Below are positions 12,249-20,312 of a stretch of 64,000 bases of DNA, piece after piece. The DNA is from Bacillota bacterium (GTDB lineage: Bacteria; Bacillota; Dethiobacteria; DTU022), in the NCBI GenBank assembly GCA_029552125.1, contig JAKPEE010000106.1:15699-79698 (forward strand), written 5' to 3'. The notes under the pieces are model-generated. The model was not told the DNA's origin. It was given only the letters and a program-made list of their open reading frames with translations, and ran no database searches. Position 1 is the stretch's first letter; every line of letters starts with the position of its first letter. The position numbers were made by a program, and so were the translations under genes.

Positions 12249-12580
12249 GATATAATCTCCTTGCGGCCACGATTGGGGATTCCTAATCTCTCACAGCTAA
12301 GCTCTCCCTCTGCACCGCCGGGCCGTGAGAGGCAGCAACGCGAAAGCTAGCTTATTTTCAAAAGCCGCCAACTTTCTGTTTGATTATATAATATGAATTT
12401 TTAATATTCAACTCTGAGATTCAGTGAGCCTGTGTCAATTTAATATAATTGTAAGAGCAATTTATAAACTTAGAGATACAGATACGGACCGCGGTATACT
12501 TTCCAGGCGTGCCAATTGATATAATTATCGTTGCGATCAAGCAAATGCAAAAGACGCAATTGATTTTGATATTAATTAAC

Positions 12581-12745
12581 TTAATCTCCAGCAAAAGCTT
12601 TTAAAACCTCAGTAAACTCTTCGGGGAAAAGCATGGGGGTATGGTGGGCGCCTGCTTCAAAAATGTATGTTTCGGCTTCCGGGTAAACGGCTGCTAATTC
12701 CTGTAATTTATCGATAGTATCCTGGTCGTCCTGACTGTTAATTAT
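12581..12745 (-). pseudogene. Remnant of the C-terminal end of an alpha/beta-hydrolase gene.
   Basis: The minus-strand frame reads ...IINSQDDQDTIDKLQELAAVYPEAETYIFEAGAHHTPMLFPEEFTEVLKAFAGD*, a classic catalytic-His tail of an a/b hydrolase. There is no intact N-terminal part. The upstream 12742..12933 ORF is in another frame. The context is AT-rich. Confidence 0.5.
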
Positions 12746-13064
12746 TCTTTGCCTCTCCAGCCTGAAATATCGGGCAGTTCTTCTTTAAGCCTCTCGACAA
12801 GCGTCACATAAAATTCTATCAATAATTTGTGATTAATTTTTGAATAAAAACCGTTTAGGTATACATTTCTAAATTCGTTATAGCGGGAAACCCGGCAATA
12901 TTTCATTCGCCTTTTAAACGCAAACCTGATCATGAATTCTGGAATATATTTTAACGCACTTATTTTTTTATCTTCAATTCTTTCAATAAAGCTTTTCGTT
13001 GGGTAAGCATCTTGTCCTCACTAAAAAGTTATTTCTCCAACGCGGCTGCTGTTGCTCGAAACAC

Positions 13065-15185
13065 TCATATGTCTTCCGGGGCTTTTTGACCCCGGTATTC
13101 TTCGCGGTCAACCAGGCCGTTGATTTCGGCCAGGAAAGGGGATTCCTGGCCGGCGGTGGTGAGCAGGAAGAGGTTTTCCGCGGCGCGGGTCATGGCCACG
13201 TAGAGCAGGGTACGGAAGCGCTCCAGATCCAGTTGCTGCTCTTCCGGATCCAGGCCATTGCGGTTGATATAACGGGGGAGCAGCCCGCGCCGCACCCCGG
13301 CGACAAAAACCACCGGAAACTCGATGCCCTTGGCCGAGTGAATGGTCATGACCTTCACATTTTCTTCAAGGATATTAAAAGCCTGGTCCTTGTGAAAGAC
13401 ACAGGGGATGTTGCGGTTAGTCAAAGCATCGCAATACTGCTGGCACAACTTATTGGTTGGGCAAAGGACGGCAAAATCGGACAGGCGGAAGTGCCCGCCC
13501 CCGATCAGCTCCAAAATTGTTTCGCAAACGTAGCGCACTTCCCTATCTTGCAGGTCGCAGGTGATCACCCGGGGGCGGGCGCCCACCCGGTGAGACCATT
13601 CTGGCTTGATGAATTCCTGCTCTGCCTGAAGGAGGGTATTATGCACAATCAGGCAGGCAGCGGCAACAGCCACCTGCCTGGTATTGCGAAAGTTTCTACG
13701 CAAGATGGCGGTGCGGCCGCGGGCATCGATACCGGCATTTTTCCAGGAGAAGCCCCGGCTGTAAATGGTTTGGGAGGCGTCGGCCATAACCATAAAGCTG
13801 CGGCGGGAGCGGGGATCGCCGCCCTTGATCAACTCCCGGGTAAGGCGCAGTTGGACCGGGCTCAAATCCTGGCCCTCGTCAAGGATAACGTCGTCGTATG
13901 GATCGGCCAGGGGTTCTTCAGTAATCAGCTTCAGCCCTACCAGGGGCAGGTCGTTCCAATCATGCAGCCCGGCTTCCTGGAGCAACTCCTGGTAGGCTGT
14001 ATATACAGCCCAGACGGCCCGGCGGTGCCCTGGAGATAAGGGGGTGTTGCGGCCGAATCGGCGCACCTGCAAGTATTGTTCCAGGCTGCCGATGCCGTTA
14101 CCCTTGATTACCTGCTGGATCTCGGTATGGAAAAAATTAAGATCCAGCCGGGGAAAATCGTTTTCCGATGTCTGGCGGACCCGCTTGATCGCCTCCTCCA
14201 CCAATTCCTTCTGCCGGTCGTCATTAATGACATCAAATTCAAGCTCATGCTCCCGGCGCAGGTACTCGGTAAGCCAGTTAAAGAAAGTCATTACTTCCAG
14301 GTTATCCGGCAGCGAACCGATTAACTCTTCAATCAAGGTCTTGTTGACGCCGTTTAAGGTGCGGGTAAAGGTGAGCAGGAGCACTTTGCGCCCCTGGGCG
14401 GCCTGCTCGATGGCCCGGTAAATGCCCACAGTAGTCTTGCCCGAGCCGGCGCAGCCCCGCAGGACCAAATCACCGGTATGGCGAGAAGCAACATAGCGGC
14501 TTTGTTCCGGATCCAGGTACAGCATTAACCTTTTCAGGCTGCCCCGGCAGTAGCCTTGAAGGCGGTCCAGGGTGGTGCGGAAAAGCAGGTTATCGGGGTT
14601 ATAGATAACATGCTCCATTTCGCAGTTTGTGGCCAGGTCCAGCAGCCAGTTGAGGCTCTGCAGGGGCAGACCGTCAAGCTGCTCCAGTTCTTCGAGGCGG
14701 CGGGCCCTTTGCACCTTTTTGACCAGGTGGGAGGGCACTCCCAGGATGCGCAGGTGCGCTGCCGGAAAATAAGCAAAGGGGTTGTCCGCTTCACCTTCAT
14801 TCACCGGGCTGGAGATAGCGGTGCCAGTATGCGCTGCAGCGGCGGCCACTTCGGCTTCAGCTTCAGTGACATCATCATCTGTTTCCAGGCGGCTAAAGGC
14901 GGTTTGCGGAGCGAAAACCCGCCGGTGCACCCGGTCGATAATGCGATGATCGCCCAGTTTCCACAGGCGCAATACATCGCAGTCCCAGTCATAGATGATG
15001 CGCCACGACAAGTTCACATAACACTCCCACTTTCCCGGCGTGCTGTTTAACCGGTGGGCCTGTAGACCCGGATGCCACGGATCCACCCTGAGCTTCTTGA
15101 TCGTGTCCATGGCCTGGTTCTTGATTTCCGCCGGACAGTGATCCAGAGTAGCCTTAAATTCGTCTGAAATAAGTAGTTCAAACAC
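13065..15185 (-). CDS. Fusion protein: an N-terminal RelE/ParE/YafQ-like toxin-fold domain joined to an SF1 UvrD/Rep-like helicase.
   Basis: GTG start 6 nt after GGAGGG. Residues 1-90 follow the RelE/YafQ pattern (KKLRVDPWHPGLQAHRLNSTPGKWECYVNLSWRIIYDWDCDVLRLWKLGDH). The helicase motifs are Q-like LDPEQSRYV, Walker A GCAGSGKTTVG, motif II VILDEGQDLSP, motif III ADASQTIY, motif IV NFRNTRQV, motif V TIHSAKGIEFPVVFV and motif VI LLYVAMTRAAENLFL. Confidence 0.75.
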   Translation of the reverse strand: MFELLISDEFKATLDHCPAEIKNQAMDTIKKLRVDPWHPGLQAHRLNSTPGKWECYVNLSWRIIYDWDCDVLRLWKLGDHRIIDRVHRRVFAPQTAFSRLETDDDVTEAEAEVAAAAAHTGTAISSPVNEGEADNPFAYFPAAHLRILGVPSHLVKKVQRARRLEELEQLDGLPLQSLNWLLDLATNCEMEHVIYNPDNLLFRTTLDRLQGYCRGSLKRLMLYLDPEQSRYVASRHTGDLVLRGCAGSGKTTVGIYRAIEQAAQGRKVLLLTFTRTLNGVNKTLIEELIGSLPDNLEVMTFFNWLTEYLRREHELEFDVINDDRQKELVEEAIKRVRQTSENDFPRLDLNFFHTEIQQVIKGNGIGSLEQYLQVRRFGRNTPLSPGHRRAVWAVYTAYQELLQEAGLHDWNDLPLVGLKLITEEPLADPYDDVILDEGQDLSPVQLRLTRELIKGGDPRSRRSFMVMADASQTIYSRGFSWKNAGIDARGRTAILRRNFRNTRQVAVAAACLIVHNTLLQAEQEFIKPEWSHRVGARPRVITCDLQDREVRYVCETILELIGGGHFRLSDFAVLCPTNKLCQQYCDALTNRNIPCVFHKDQAFNILEENVKVMTIHSAKGIEFPVVFVAGVRRGLLPRYINRNGLDPEEQQLDLERFRTLLYVAMTRAAENLFLLTTAGQESPFLAEINGLVDREEYRGQKAPEDI

Positions 15186-15478
15186 GGTTTGCCCTCCATG
15201 AAGGCAGCGGTTTGGATATATAGTTTTATGAGGGTATATCTGGTTGATAGAAAGTTACGAAGGCTGAAAAGTGTATCTTAGTGCAAACTTTGGGATATTT
15301 TGTAGCCTGATTTCATTCTAAAGGAAATGTGATAGCAGGACAACCCCTAAATTAACTAGTTTTGAGTGAGCTAAAGCAACCGAGAGGTTTCGTGCTAACC
15401 TGAACGGTATAGAGCGAAGGGCTGCTGAACACTTCCTTAGCGCACCAGTTATTGTATTAGAAAGGTTATTTAGTCGAT

Positions 15479-17353
15479 TTAATTCAATAGTTCCATCAGC
15501 TTCTCCCGCAGTTCCAGGGGGATGACCGCTACCTTGGTGCTGCGATTGTCGATGACGGCCCGGCCGATGAAAACGAGGGCGCGGGACCACAAGAGCCCGA
15601 GGGGAGAAGAGGGATCTTCCTCGTCCCAGTAAAAGCCATCCCCCGCCATGCGGCCAAACTTGCGGGTAACGGCATTTAAGCGAGCCCAGCCGCCCTGCTG
15701 CAGGAGATAGCGCAGAAGCTCCTTCTCTACCTGCCCCAGGTCTTTCACAACCTTTGCCAGCACCTTTTGGTTCATCAAGCAGGCTGCAATCTTGTTTTCC
15801 CGGTCGCGGCGCCGCTGGCGGTCCAGGCCGAGGTGGTTGCTTAAGTTAAGCAGCCACTCGTTGGGCATGTTTTTCAGGCCCCGCTTTAAGGTGGCTTGCA
15901 GGGGGATCTTTTTATTTTCAATCTCTTCCCGCAGGCTATCTTCAAAGGCGATGGTTGCGGCACGCTTTTTTAAGGGCTCGTTTAAGGAGAGGCGAATTTT
16001 CACCAGCTTTCGGATTAGTTTTATTGTTTCTTCTATCTCCTGGTCCACCAGTTCTGCATCAATGTGTTCCAGACACTCAAGAGCCGCCCGGTATTCATGA
16101 AGCTCCAGGTAGACGCCAGCCAGGCTAACCAGCACCAATGGTTCCCCAGGGAGCGCCCGTTCCAGCAGTTCTAAAATTTCCCGCGCCGACTCCAGTTTTT
16201 TCTTCCGGCGGTAGAGGTTGGCCAGGGTAACCAGGGTGGGCAAATAATAGCGCCCCTGCTCATAGAGCGGCTCCAGCAGCTCCAACGCTTCGTTGATCTT
16301 CCCCCTCTTTCTTAAGGCCATCGCCTTTTTATTGAGGCGGTCAAGCTCCGGATCTGATTCGACTACAATTCTGATTTCCTGAAGCGTGATCTGTTCTTCT
16401 TTGCCGTCAATGACCGCAGGAATGGGCTGGCCGGGTTTGTAAATACCGCGCTCCACCAGGGCCCGGGCGGCAAAATATTTAAACTCCCGGGGAATACCGC
16501 CGGCCTCGAGCAAGTTTAAACCAAATTCTTTGCCCCACTCTTCTCCAAATTTTATGAGCGGGCAGAGAATGCCTTCCACCTGGTCTTCGCGAATGTCCGG
16601 GCTGAAGAGATACGCTAAAAGGGCCATGCGTACATTACCCCGGGTCAGGAAGCGTGACTGCACCGCTTCATTTTCCGGCTCCCGGGCCAGCTCCATGAGC
16701 TTCTCCGGATCGAAGATTTCATATTCCAGGGGGAAAGGTGGGATTAACCCCCGGTCTACCAGGAAAGCAACCTGCTGCATCATCACGGCGAACCCGGCGA
16801 CATGACTTATGCGCTCCCACAGGGAGGCGGCCCGGCTGAAGCGGCCGATGTTAAACGAGGCGATGCCCGCCAGGAACGTGTTTTCCCAGTTAACGTGATA
16901 TTTATCCCAGCGGCGGTAGAGGTCGAGGACAAGGTGGTGATCCTGCAACGCCGCGGCGGCCCGCATGATCTGAACAGTATACTCGTACCACACTTCTTTT
17001 ACCAGGCCCAGCCGGTCGAGAAGCGGAAGCTTCTGTTCGAAAATGGCGGCGGCCTCCTTTAGCTGCGCCCGGGCATCTTCAGGGCGGCCCAGGCGAACGG
17101 AAAGCTGCGCCGCCAGGGCAAAGGTATAGGGATTGGCATCGGGTGCGGCAGGATCAAGATGCGGTTCGACAACAGCCCAGGCCCGCTCGATTTCGCCGTT
17201 TAAAAAAAGAGCGGTGGCCAGGTTGTTGAGGGCGGAAATATCATTTGTTAGCTCCAGGGCTTCGCTAAAGGCTTTCGCTGCCTCCCGGTAATCTTTTTCC
17301 CTGAGCAGGGTTTTGCCCCGCTCCATCATTTCAAGGAATTTGCTGCTGCTCAA
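15479..17353 (-). CDS. Tetratricopeptide-repeat protein with a non-TPR C-terminal domain of about 110 aa.
   Basis: Multiple TPR-like helix pairs (e.g. EKDYREAAKAFSEALEL, GKINEALELLEPLYEQ, KKLESAREILELLERAL, HEYRAALECLEHI). The C-terminus, LLRYLLQQGGWARLNAVTRKFGRMAGDGFYWDEEDPSSPLGLLWSRALVFIG, looks like a winged-helix module. Confidence 0.7.
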   Translation of the reverse strand: MSSSKFLEMMERGKTLLREKDYREAAKAFSEALELTNDISALNNLATALFLNGEIERAWAVVEPHLDPAAPDANPYTFALAAQLSVRLGRPEDARAQLKEAAAIFEQKLPLLDRLGLVKEVWYEYTVQIMRAAAALQDHHLVLDLYRRWDKYHVNWENTFLAGIASFNIGRFSRAASLWERISHVAGFAVMMQQVAFLVDRGLIPPFPLEYEIFDPEKLMELAREPENEAVQSRFLTRGNVRMALLAYLFSPDIREDQVEGILCPLIKFGEEWGKEFGLNLLEAGGIPREFKYFAARALVERGIYKPGQPIPAVIDGKEEQITLQEIRIVVESDPELDRLNKKAMALRKRGKINEALELLEPLYEQGRYYLPTLVTLANLYRRKKKLESAREILELLERALPGEPLVLVSLAGVYLELHEYRAALECLEHIDAELVDQEIEETIKLIRKLVKIRLSLNEPLKKRAATIAFEDSLREEIENKKIPLQATLKRGLKNMPNEWLLNLSNHLGLDRQRRRDRENKIAACLMNQKVLAKVVKDLGQVEKELLRYLLQQGGWARLNAVTRKFGRMAGDGFYWDEEDPSSPLGLLWSRALVFIGRAVIDNRSTKVAVIPLELREKLMELLN

Positions 17354-17587
17354 TGGGAACGTCTCCTTTTTTCAGGTCTTTACTATTCATTTCGGCACTG
17401 GACCATTTTCCCCTTCCCGTACCGGCAAAGGCAGTCTAAACAAACCAGGGTATACAGAGGTGGCAGCGCCAGGCAGGAACCGGGTGCCTGTTTTTCTTGT
17501 CACCATAGTATAATGGATATTGGACGGCCGGCACGGCCGGGCAGGCGTGGATAAGACCGGCCGCCAACCAAAGAGAGGATGGGATTC

Positions 17588-18871
17588 ATGAAAAGGTTAA
17601 ACCTAAAGAAACGGTGGGTGTCAACGATTCTCGCTTTTTTGTGGCTGGGAGCGATGGCGCTGCACCTGGCAGGCTGCTCTTCCGCCGCTTTAGAGGTACA
17701 GGCCGCAGACCTGATGGAAGGCATCACTGCTAAAAGCGCCAGCGGCAAAACCGCAGACAGCAGGTTTACCGGCAATACGGCGGCGTTCGCCGTCGATCTG
17801 TTCAAGGAGACGATTGCCGCCGGCGAGAATTCTTTAATCTCCCCACTGTCGGTGCTGCTGGCCCTGGCGATGACAGCCAACGGGGCGGACAATGAAACGC
17901 TGGCCCAGATGGAAGAAGTGCTCGGCCGGGGTATGGGCATTGACGAGCTAAACGAGTATCTCTACTCCTATGCCCGCAGCCTGGCAGGCGACGACCAGTC
18001 AAAGCTCTCCATCGCCAACTCGATCTGGTTCCGTGATGATGAAAACCGCCTGACCGTGGAGAAAGAATTCTTGCAAAAAAACGCCGACTATTACGGCGCC
18101 GCCGCTTATAAGTCCGCATTTGACGGGCAAACCATAAAGGATATCAACAACTGGGTCCGGGCCAATACGGACGGGATGATCGATAAAATTCTGGATCAGA
18201 TTGATCCGGACGCGGTCATGTACCTGATCAATGCCATAGTCTTCGATGCACAGTGGAAAGTAGTGTACAATAAAGAAAATATCTATCAAGGCGAATTTAC
18301 CGCCGGCGACGGGCAAAAGCAAACCGCCGATTTCATGTCCTCGGAGGAATTGCTCTTTCTGGACGACGGCCGGGCTACCGGCTTTATCAAACCCTATGCC
18401 GGCGGAAAATTCAGCTTTGTAGCCCTTCTGCCCAATGAAGGCGTGGCCATCGAAGACTACATTGCCTCCCTTTCGGGAGAAGCCCTTCTAAGCACAATTA
18501 GAGGGGCGGAAAATACGACGGTCATTGCGGCACTGCCCAAGTTCAGCGATGATTATACTGTCACGATGAACGACGCCTTAAAGGCCCTCGGCATGCCGGA
18601 TGCATTTTCGGCCGCCGCAGCCGATTTTAGCAGGCTGGGCCGATCGTCTTGGGGCAACCTCTATATTGGCGAGGTGCTGCATAAAACCTTTATCGCGGTG
18701 GATGAACTCGGTACCAAGGCCGGAGCCGTAACCAAGGTCGAGATGAAAGTGGGATCAGCCTATGTTGAACCAAAGATAGTAAAGCTGGACAGACCTTTTG
18801 TCTACGCCATCATCGACAACGCAACCGCGCTGCCGCTGTTTATGGGGACAGTAATCAGTTTAAACAATTAA
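17588..18871 (+). CDS. Serpin-family serine protease inhibitor, lipoprotein.
   Basis: Lipobox LAGCSS. Serpin core with hinge/reactive loop VDELGTKAGAVTKVEM...KLDRPFVYAIID. ATG at 17588 after GAGAGGA. Confidence 0.8.
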   Translation: MKRLNLKKRWVSTILAFLWLGAMALHLAGCSSAALEVQAADLMEGITAKSASGKTADSRFTGNTAAFAVDLFKETIAAGENSLISPLSVLLALAMTANGADNETLAQMEEVLGRGMGIDELNEYLYSYARSLAGDDQSKLSIANSIWFRDDENRLTVEKEFLQKNADYYGAAAYKSAFDGQTIKDINNWVRANTDGMIDKILDQIDPDAVMYLINAIVFDAQWKVVYNKENIYQGEFTAGDGQKQTADFMSSEELLFLDDGRATGFIKPYAGGKFSFVALLPNEGVAIEDYIASLSGEALLSTIRGAENTTVIAALPKFSDDYTVTMNDALKALGMPDAFSAAAADFSRLGRSSWGNLYIGEVLHKTFIAVDELGTKAGAVTKVEMKVGSAYVEPKIVKLDRPFVYAIIDNATALPLFMGTVISLNN

Positions 18872-19217: not shown

Positions 19218-20312
19218 TTGGCCAAGACAGTGAAGCCGAACCTTTATATCGGGCTAATTGTGTTCTTCATGGTCCTGGTTTTGATGATACTTGTGGCTAT
19301 GCCAATGCAGATGGCATGGGGCATGTGGGGGCTGGCCTTGACAGAGTTAATGCTTCTGGCCTGTGCCATTGTTCCGGCCCTGATTTTCAAGTGGGATCTG
19401 CGGGAAATTTTCAAATTCAGCAGACCTACGGTAAGGCAGATCTTTGGCGTTCTGGTGCTGTGGCTGGGCGCTTATCTGGCCATAGCGGCAGTAACCATGA
19501 TCATTGCTTATTTTTTCCCTGAGGGAGTGAGTTATGTCAGCAGCGAGCTGTCTAAGTTCTTCAGTTCTGTGCCCTTCCCGCTGACCTTATTGATCGCGGC
19601 GGTAATGCCGGCTGTCTGCGAAGAGGCCTTGCACAGGGGACTGATTCTCCATACCTTTGGGGGTAAAAGCAAATGGATCACCATGATGGGGATGGGACTT
19701 ATCTTTGGCATTTTCCACCTGGATCCGTACCGCTTCCTGGGGACGGCGATATTGGGCGTAATCCTGACCTTGATCATGATTGAAACGCAAAATATCCTCC
19801 TGCCAATACTCTTCCACTTCGTAAATAATAGCGCCAGCCTTCTTTCCACACTGATTGATGAATCGGGCGCGGCAGTGCAGCCTCCCCTGGAATCAGTGGG
19901 CGTTTTTATGATCCTGGCTGCTGCTGTCCCCTTCTTGCTTCTGGCCGGCAGCAGGCTGCTCAAGAGCAAAGCGGAAAGCCGAAGCAACCCCGTCAGCAAA
20001 AGGGCAAAGTTCGTTGCCGTGGCCGCAGCCGTAATTCTGGCCGCGGCTGGCACAGGCATTATTGCTGCATCCCTGGCCCAGGCACCGCTCTTTGAGACAT
20101 CTTATTCCGGCGGGGTAAACCGGGATACTTCACCCCACGAACTGGAATTTACCGTGCCTGAGGACGGCAGCTATATCATCGATTTGAACATTCAGGGGGG
20201 CCCGGTCATCACTACCATGGTGATCGAAAATAGCAGGGGAGAACAGGTCTTCGATGTCAGCGCCGGATCTTTAACGTATAACGGGCTGATCGATCTGGAG
20301 GCCGGGGATTAG
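19218..20312 (+). CDS. CPBP (CAAX protease / Abi) family intramembrane metalloprotease with a C-terminal extracytoplasmic beta-rich domain. The gene ends at an in-frame TAG.
   Basis: CPBP motifs EEALHRG, FGIFH and FHFVNN within a polytopic N-terminal half. TTG start after GGAGGG. The frame stays open for 23 codons after the TAG at 20310, through the last sense codon at 20381 (see findings). Confidence 0.75.
   Translation: MAKTVKPNLYIGLIVFFMVLVLMILVAMPMQMAWGMWGLALTELMLLACAIVPALIFKWDLREIFKFSRPTVRQIFGVLVLWLGAYLAIAAVTMIIAYFFPEGVSYVSSELSKFFSSVPFPLTLLIAAVMPAVCEEALHRGLILHTFGGKSKWITMMGMGLIFGIFHLDPYRFLGTAILGVILTLIMIETQNILLPILFHFVNNSASLLSTLIDESGAAVQPPLESVGVFMILAAAVPFLLLAGSRLLKSKAESRSNPVSKRAKFVAVAAAVILAAAGTGIIAASLAQAPLFETSYSGGVNRDTSPHELEFTVPEDGSYIIDLNIQGGPVITTMVIENSRGEQVFDVSAGSLTYNGLIDLEAGD

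Follow-up and report, generated by a model that had tools for sequence, protein, structure and literature searches.

A RelE-fold domain joined to a UvrD-like helicase in a Bacillota genome and its relation to the defence protein ArmD

The 64,000-nucleotide stretch of Bacillota bacterium DNA analysed here (contig JAKPEE010000106.1 of assembly GCA_029552125.1; called the window below) carries on its reverse strand, at 13065..15185, an open reading frame (ORF) for a protein of 706 amino acids (aa) with at least 120 full-length homologs. Our results demonstrate that the N-terminus of this protein is a genuine RelE/ParE-superfamily fold, covalently joined to a UvrD-like helicase of superfamily 1 (SF1), and alignment identifies the whole as an intact, distant, full-length homolog of ArmD, a component of the defence system ARMADA Type II. 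Four parts follow one another in the fusion protein: a domain of the RelE/YafQ fold, an acidic and variable linker, a helical domain and a helicase core of the SF1A type. An earlier note on this DNA, made from the letters alone, had recognised the fusion and had taken its architecture to be without a described counterpart. The fusion stands, whereas the architecture itself is already known, as ArmD has the same design (PMC12458937); what is new is a separate, solitary subfamily, together with the recurrence of ArmD-like proteins at the end of several modification-based systems. Taking the evidence together, we lean towards the reading that the window protein is a solitary ArmD-like RelE-UvrD member, which would serve as a stand-alone factor against phages or mobile elements.

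The RelE/YafQ-fold, toxin-like domain is encoded at 14886..15185 on the reverse strand (aa 1-100, with the core at aa 1-84) and its core is followed by a conserved extension (D84...F91..T95.F97.R99). Taken singly, the window protein gave only sub-threshold matches to models of RelE-type toxins: Pfam YafQ_toxin matched at E=0.012 over the full length and at 8e-4 for residues 1-104 alone (20.1 bits for a cut-off of 30), NCBIfam RelE_StbE at E=0.0037 (17.7 bits, cut-off 27.9) and ParE_like at E=0.18. For this reason the N-terminus was tested at the level of the family. When 36 family members were scanned one by one, YafQ_toxin matched 34 of them at E<0.1 (best E 6e-7), ParE_like matched 30 and ParE_toxin 14, and a profile of the domain, run against the sequences of the PDB, found Helicobacter pylori HP0894 (E~1e-4) and then HP0892, YoeB and YafQ. 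An AlphaFold2 (AF2) model of the N-terminus (pLDDT 88.4, pTM 0.82) has the topology beta-alpha-alpha-beta-beta-beta, and its top ~50 Foldseek matches in the PDB are nearly all toxins of the RelE/YafQ/YoeB/HigB/ParE kind (probability 1.00, E down to 1.7e-5, TM up to 0.82), with the CARF-RelE fusion Cami1 (8phj) also among the matches. Profile, single-member matches and modelled structure all bear out the RelE/YafQ-like N-terminus that had been proposed.

The residues of the domain add to this picture. Fourteen of the first 100 positions are invariant in the alignment of 36 relatives (L32, P36, L41, H44, W53, Y56, R62, W75, G78, H80, D84, F91, T95 and F97), and within the clade closest to the window protein the toxin domain is as well conserved (69-81% identity) as the whole protein (72-78%). 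Alignment to RelE, YoeB and YafQ, the reference sequences of which were checked against the PDB, pairs R62 with RelE R61 and YoeB R65, and H80 with RelE R81, YoeB H83 and YafQ H87; judged from alignment only, basic or His residues are retained at these RNase active-site positions. At the position of YafQ H63 the window protein has a tyrosine (Y56). The earlier note had pointed to this ECY, where YafQ and HP0894 have ECH, and the difference in residue is indeed there; it does not hold as a sign of inactivation, as R62 and H80 are retained, and it says little about activity because the position varies within the nearest subfamily of free-standing toxins. A reading as a ParE-like gyrase poison, raised by the matches to ParE_like and ParE_toxin, was ranked lower because the best structural and profile matches are toxins of the RNase type, whose R and H positions are invariant here.

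A search with the domain profile among 1.84 billion representative proteins gave 1,704 clusters at E<=0.001, in which fusions of ~700 aa are mixed with free-standing proteins of 85-95 aa. Common to the small proteins, which are the nearest relatives of the domain, is the signature NPxHPSL..H[RK]..WE..YR..VGxH, and R62 and H80 are invariant in fusions and free-standing toxins alike. Each of the small relatives has a gene of 85-88 aa upstream with a 4-nucleotide overlap, one of which encodes a MazE-type antitoxin (4.7e-13). By these sequence relationships, the N-terminal domain of the fusion descends from true type II toxins. No antitoxin gene accompanies the fusion in the window, just as the earlier note had stated: neither the spacer nor the flanks hold a credible ORF or a Pfam match for one. 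The 293-nucleotide upstream spacer contains only ORFs of 21-30 aa and one of 90 aa that overlaps the neighbouring TPR gene out of frame, none with a Pfam match, and no small upstream ORF is conserved across 49 non-redundant loci of the family. A classical toxin-antitoxin module whose antitoxin had escaped recognition was rejected on these grounds.

Behind the toxin-like domain lies the acidic, Ala-rich linker (14787..14885, reverse strand; aa 101-133), which varies in length and sequence across the family (alignment columns ~150-200), and then an all-alpha middle domain (14508..14786, reverse strand; aa 134-226; HLRILGVP...WLLEL...LFRTTLDRLxGYC...KRLMLNL). The earlier note had described the latter as a helical region of ~90 aa; it proves to be a real and strongly conserved domain, with a mean column identity of 68% and an AF2 model that is entirely helical (pLDDT 79). 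Neither a profile search nor Foldseek on this model found a relative in the PDB, and an impression that the domain is helix-hairpin-helix-like was dropped for lack of support.

The remainder of the protein is an SF1A helicase core of the UvrD/PcrA type with domains 1A, 1B and 2A (13116..14507, reverse strand; aa 227-690), from which most of domain 2B is missing. Pfam recognises UvrD-helicase (2.5e-19) and UvrD_C (3.4e-26) at aa ~224-690, and both nucleotide-binding motifs noted previously are intact and invariant in the family: Walker A, GCAGSGKTT (14430..14456, reverse strand; aa 244-252), with K250 corresponding to ArmD K266, and Walker B or motif II, DEGQD (13866..13880, reverse strand; aa 436-440), with D436 corresponding to ArmD D454. 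The closest PDB entries to the core are PcrA (1.5e-24), UvrD1, UvrD and Rep; the alignment to PcrA skips PcrA residues ~378-560, that is, most of domain 2B. The top PADLOC models for the fusion are NERD+UvrD (3.4e-46) and GajB (2.6e-33). Scores for the NCBIfam equivalogs are far lower than their cut-offs (pcrA 143.5 bits, cut-off 911; uvrD 97 bits, cut-off 1144), and by these values, and by the lack of a canonical domain 2B, the protein falls outside the housekeeping UvrD, PcrA and Rep helicases.

In ARMADA Type II (Bell et al., bioRxiv, 15 September 2025, PMC12458937), ArmA is a BrxHII/SNF2-like helicase, ArmB a PglX-like methyltransferase and ArmC a YprA-like helicase, and ArmD is described as an N-terminal RelE-like domain joined to a GajB-like UvrD helicase. 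All four genes are needed for protection, which is abolished by ArmD K266A and weakened by D454N (PMC12458937). In the operon of E. coli O157:H7 Sakai, ArmD is ECs_5264 (L171:38041-40155, 704 aa). BLASTP aligns the window protein to it at 27% identity (E=1e-52), and hhalign of our family profile against ArmD gives a probability of 100 and E=4e-55 over 644 columns (Q24-702 / T6-701). A further link is provided by a Lachnospiraceae locus (L003), where the gene of an ArmD-like relative that aligns end to end with the window protein (E=7e-48) directly adjoins a YprA/DruE-like gene, as ArmD adjoins ArmC.

The genomic surroundings of the family were examined on a broad set of loci. A sequence database search found 591 relatives, the full-length ones sharing 44-78% identity with the window protein, and 79 metagenomic loci were collected with patterns specific to the middle domain, in addition to the contigs of named homologs; neighbourhoods were counted over 49 groups with less than 90% identity between groups. 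All three modules are present in 81 of 90 focal genes, split or truncated forms being rare. A contig scan by full-length alignment chose generic helicase motifs and returned mostly distant UvrD-like genes, its useful loci being L003, L009, L020 and L037, and no relatives carrying the middle-domain patterns were found on viral contigs (IMG/VR). Overall, the family is mostly in defence contexts, in agreement with the defence association that had been suspected.

One of these contexts, seen in 13 of the 49 groups, is a tight co-directional cassette made up of a ~175-aa protein, an Hsp70-family ATPase (1e-42, ~770 aa), the fusion and a double helicase of ~1,950 aa (L119:6796-17453; L116:216-17663; L089:5181-16054; and 10 further groups, for example L103, L105, L107, L112, L114 and L139). 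Its ORFs overlap, and in every case it is preceded by a restriction-modification (RM) unit of type IIG or type III, sometimes accompanied by an SNF2/PLD protein. The double helicase combines a DinG-like superfamily 2 (SF2) part with a UvrD-like SF1 part, and its C-terminus resembles the PADLOC candidate PDC-S68; the ~175-aa protein (c2) has no known domain and no match in Pfam or PADLOC. No description of this Hsp70/DinG-UvrD cassette was found in the literature searched.

ArmD-like fusions also close other modification operons. In alphaproteobacteria (L009:2372-17811; L020:399-8489; L037:2802-11341), the Res and Mod genes of a type III RM system are followed by a gene for a ~165-aa protein, the stop codon of which overlaps the start of the ArmD-like fusion, and in L009 a helicase-nuclease of 1,945 aa (DUF4011/AAA_11/AAA_12/MTES_1575) comes after the fusion. 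Neither c2 nor these ~165-aa proteins have a counterpart in any frame of the window or a match in Pfam or PADLOC, and the two show no detectable relation to each other. Both were considered as putative antitoxins. On the Deinococcus taeanensis plasmid NZ_CP083460.1 (L176:1-14064), the ArmD-like fusion, annotated as a 3'-5' exonuclease, ends a Dpd 7-deazaguanine DNA-modification cluster and abuts a PLD-domain gene. As ArmD-like proteins thus recur at the 3' end of several modification-based systems and are not specific to ARMADA, a general accessory role is suggested.

The close clade of the window protein (~8 groups, 71-78% identity) is solitary in varied surroundings, among them a divergent PIF1-WYL helicase, a Wadjet system and a McrBC / PRTase-CE island. 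In the Wadjet case (L098:1411-10606), JetC (4e-96), with genes of the size of JetA and JetB before it, lies directly upstream of a close relative of the window fusion, which occupies the position where JetD might be expected. WYL proteins recur beside family members: the PIF1-WYL helicase just mentioned belongs to the window's clade (L081:6075-7616), and in another clade an HTH-WYL-WCX regulator is directly upstream of the family member (L085:7007-7987). These WYL-domain neighbours may be regulators of the fusion gene.

Based on these observations, a possible course of events for a solitary ArmD-like factor can be outlined. The helicase would load on a nucleic-acid feature that betrays invasion (for example DNA ends, foreign DNA that is unmodified or replicating, or the transcription complexes of such DNA) and would translocate at the expense of ATP. 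Until then, the helical and helicase domains, in place of the lost antitoxin, would keep the RelE-like domain inactive in cis, and engagement of the helicase with its substrate would release or position this domain. The released domain would then cleave RNA, most plausibly ribosome-bound mRNA, as do RelE, YoeB, YafQ and Cami1. In relatives, this protein is encoded by the last gene of DNA-modification systems (ARMADA II, Dpd, type III RM, type IIG RM), from which the window's clade would have become independent. The defence part of the proposal draws on the RM cassettes in 13 of 49 groups, the Wadjet locus L098, the McrBC / PRTase-CE island, the Dpd cluster and the type III RM operons, and also on a relative of the window's TPR gene that has a McrA/Mrr/BREX island in the slot taken by the fusion in the window. 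Control of the toxin domain in cis by the helicase is possible by analogy with Cami1, an antitoxin-less RelE fused to a sensor and acting on the ribosome, which serves as a precedent.

Several observations weigh against this proposal. The window protein alone stays below the Pfam and NCBIfam thresholds for RelE-family models, its gene directly adjoins metabolic genes and genes for a serpin and a CPBP protease rather than defence genes, and 9 of the 49 groups show a stable lineage synteny that involves housekeeping-type genes such as GH31, TauE and canonical UvrD. Furthermore, E. coli ArmD is inactive without ArmA-C, and in a second preprint, on O-island 172 of strain EDL933, deletion of armD had the mildest phenotype. 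ARMADA II, the sole tested relative, is reported to protect directly and non-abortively, with no arrest of growth (PMC12458937); this is hard to square with a broad mRNA interferase and speaks against the abortive-infection logic put forward in the earlier note. Finally, in the ARMADA papers the mutations of ArmD were confined to its ATPase motifs and spared the RelE-like domain; the absence of such a mutant and the non-abortive protection are our main reasons for caution.

The same facts can be arranged differently. The RelE-like domain could have ceased to be a nuclease and have become an adaptor that binds RNA, the ribosome or a protein, with the helicase/ATPase doing the work through GajB-like nucleotide depletion or displacement of phage complexes. 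The non-abortive protection by ARMADA II (PMC12458937) would be readily explained in this way, the authors of the CoCoNuT study considered that related RelE-fold domains may not retain all residues required for toxicity (PMC11090510), and loss of toxicity is the simplest explanation for loss of the antitoxin. In the window family, Y56 replaces the His of YafQ and HP0894 and no conserved residue is seen at the counterpart of YafQ D67, while ArmD-like proteins differ from the window family at H44, E54 and Y56. Against a mere adaptor, R62 and H80, which correspond to RelE R61/R81 and YoeB R65/H83, do not vary in fusions or in free-standing toxins, Glu or Asp at position 54 (E54) and a basic residue at 44 are retained as well, and the RelE-like domain is as conserved as the helicase. 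The active sites of RelE-family toxins are plastic, and given this plasticity one lost His is weak evidence. We hold an adaptor function to be possible, though we would not expect it.

If the protein were instead an orphaned part of a multi-gene modification system, ARMADA-like or RM-linked, it would be inert alone or would act in trans with partners elsewhere in the genome, of which 64 kb are visible here. The need of E. coli ArmD for ArmA-C (PMC12458937), the 13 groups of this very family inside a four-gene cassette behind RM genes and the relatives that end Dpd or type III RM operons are all compatible with such an origin, which we nevertheless regard as unlikely: all motifs and family-invariant residues are intact, the gene has a ribosome-binding site and a promoter-like site of its own, and the window contains no homolog of ArmC-like, RM, SNF2, Hsp70-like, giant-helicase or other cassette partners. 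Moreover, the members of the close clade remain well conserved although they are solitary and found in different contexts, a pattern that points to selection on a stand-alone function. The least likely rival, which we consider very improbable, is a lineage-specific housekeeping helicase of DNA repair or replication with an N-terminus that merely resembles a toxin. In its favour are the closeness of the helicase to PcrA and UvrD, the GH31, TauE and UvrD synteny described above, two of the 49 groups with a PafBC-type WYL regulator on one side and AddAB-like genes on the other, and the metabolic genes flanking the fusion in the window. They are countered by scores far under the PcrA, UvrD and Rep equivalog thresholds (143 bits for a PcrA cut-off of 911), by neighbourhoods that are patchy, variable and dominated by defence genes, by the homology to the validated defence protein ArmD, and by the local G+C content of the gene (0.57, between flanks of 0.39-0.47).

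Extending our preferred reading of a solitary defence factor, one may speculate that ArmD-like proteins are a portable "RNA arm" at the end of at least four modification-based immune systems (ARMADA II, Dpd, type III RM, and type IIG RM with the Hsp70-like ATPase and the DinG-UvrD double helicase), which in the window's clade would have turned into an autonomous single-gene system, the helicase replacing the antitoxin and tying ribosome-dependent cleavage of mRNA to the recognition of foreign DNA or of the transcription of such DNA. This wider scheme is a tentative one, and we rate it as doubtful. Within a newly validated defence system, ArmD is the component that is understood least, and a solitary, single-gene subfamily without the three large partners would be a much simpler system for studying the RelE-like domain. 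It would be suited to asking whether this domain is an active ribosome-dependent RNase, whether the helicase is a substitute for the antitoxin and what signal would release the domain. In addition, the survey points to an apparently undescribed cassette in which an ArmD-like protein is combined with a small protein, an Hsp70-like ATPase and a DinG-UvrD double helicase.

Turning to the gene itself, translation of the fusion starts at a GTG at 15185, and a ribosome-binding site read from the sequence, GGAGGG (15192..15197, reverse strand), is located 6 nucleotides upstream of it. A consensus scan of the spacer 5' of the gene located a promoter-like site, TTGTCC-17-TAGAAT (15315..15343, reverse strand), which suggests that the fusion gene may have its own promoter. 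The window protein clusters with HOL17866.1 (P0270), annotated "3'-5' exonuclease [Bacillota bacterium]". Family members at NCBI (HOL17866.1/P0270, P0020, P0060 and others) go by the names "3'-5' exonuclease", "ATP-dependent helicase" and "UvrD-helicase domain-containing protein", all of which miss the toxin-like domain, whereas some relatives at JGI already carry names that pair "superfamily I helicase" with "YafQ/RelE endonuclease". One full-length relative of 45% identity (P0087) is on an NCBI contig of 23 Mb, far above the size of a bacterial chromosome, and could be a contamination of, or a transfer into, a eukaryotic assembly.

Upstream of the fusion, at 15479..17353 on the reverse strand, is a gene for a TPR protein of 624 aa, which the earlier note had considered as a partner. 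This gene is beside the fusion in only one of the 49 groups, and its protein belongs to a small, Bacillota-restricted family (~630 aa) with an unannotated C-terminal region of ~140 aa. Downstream of three TPR relatives (L177, L178 and L179) we found polysaccharide genes, a McrA/Mrr/BREX island (in L178) or an IS21 element. Because the downstream cargo differs among these three relatives and is unrelated to the fusion, and because the TPR gene is a singleton among the fusion neighbourhoods, this conserved Bacillota gene looks like the border of a variable slot rather than a partner of the fusion, a comparison that covers three loci only; the slot downstream of it suggests an insertion hotspot. 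The idea of the TPR protein as a sensor partner was also rejected, its weak matches to TPR-S and TPR-CSD reflecting generic TPR similarity. No signs of mobility were seen around the fusion, in that the flanks contain no tRNA, no att-like flanking repeats and no Rfam family.

One flank of the window gene holds a branched-chain amino-acid permease, a FabH-like enzyme, an acyl-CoA ligase, an FMN reductase and a TetR regulator, and the other the serpin, the CPBP protease, an amine oxidase and ApbE. Downstream of the fusion is an AT-rich non-coding gap of 815 bp (12249-13064; G+C of 0.39 in the surrounding 2 kb) with several promoter-like sites and no credible ORF, Rfam match or tRNA. The serpin gene (17579-18871, forward strand; 3.3e-87) and the TPR gene diverge, and behind the serpin comes the CPBP/Rce1-like intramembrane protease (19218-20312, forward strand); this pairing is uncommon.

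Among known systems, ArmD (ECs_5264 / Z5902, WP_000218177.1) is the nearest to the window protein. The order of parts is the same (RelE-like domain, linker, helical region, GajB-like UvrD core), the lengths are 704 and 706 aa, Walker A and B align, the equivalents of R62 and H80 are conserved and neither protein has an antitoxin. The 27% identity between them nevertheless places the window protein in a separate subfamily, the middle-domain profile of which fails to detect ArmD-like proteins; these also depart from it at H44, E54 and Y56. The key distinction is genomic: ArmD is strictly the fourth gene after ArmA, ArmB and ArmC, whereas none of these three is in the window and no armA/armB/armC order precedes the fusion there. 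With GajB of Gabija, the window protein has in common a UvrD-like SF1A ATPase in phage defence, as also seen in the match to the GajB profile; GajB differs in having no toxin domain and in its partner, the OLD-family nuclease GajA (ATPase/Toprim), which is not among the annotated neighbours of the window fusion.

CnuH of the Type II and III-A CoCoNuT systems likewise combines a predicted RelE/colicin D-fold "RNase toxin-like" domain with an SF1 helicase in a defence system, and Hsp70-like partners are described there (PMC11090510), as they are present in the Hsp70 cassette of the window family. CnuH differs in its UPF1-like helicase of the SF1B type, its SmpB-like domain, its McrBC-type operons and the internal rather than N-terminal position of its RelE-fold domain. 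The window protein lies outside this group: its helicase is of the UvrD (SF1A) type, AAA_12 matches only at E=0.0043 and no McrB or McrC gene is adjacent. The free-standing RelE, YafQ and YoeB toxins share with the window domain the fold and the conserved core NPxHPSL..H[RK]..WE..YR..VGxH; they are single-domain proteins with an overlapping upstream antitoxin gene, whereas the window protein has no antitoxin and carries ~600 aa attached to the toxin-like part. Finally, Cami1 (CARF-RelE, PDB 8phj/8phb), an mRNA interferase governed in cis by a fused sensor, is like the window protein in being a RelE-fold protein without an antitoxin, and unlike it in that this sensor is a CARF domain binding cyclic tetra-adenylate rather than a helicase.

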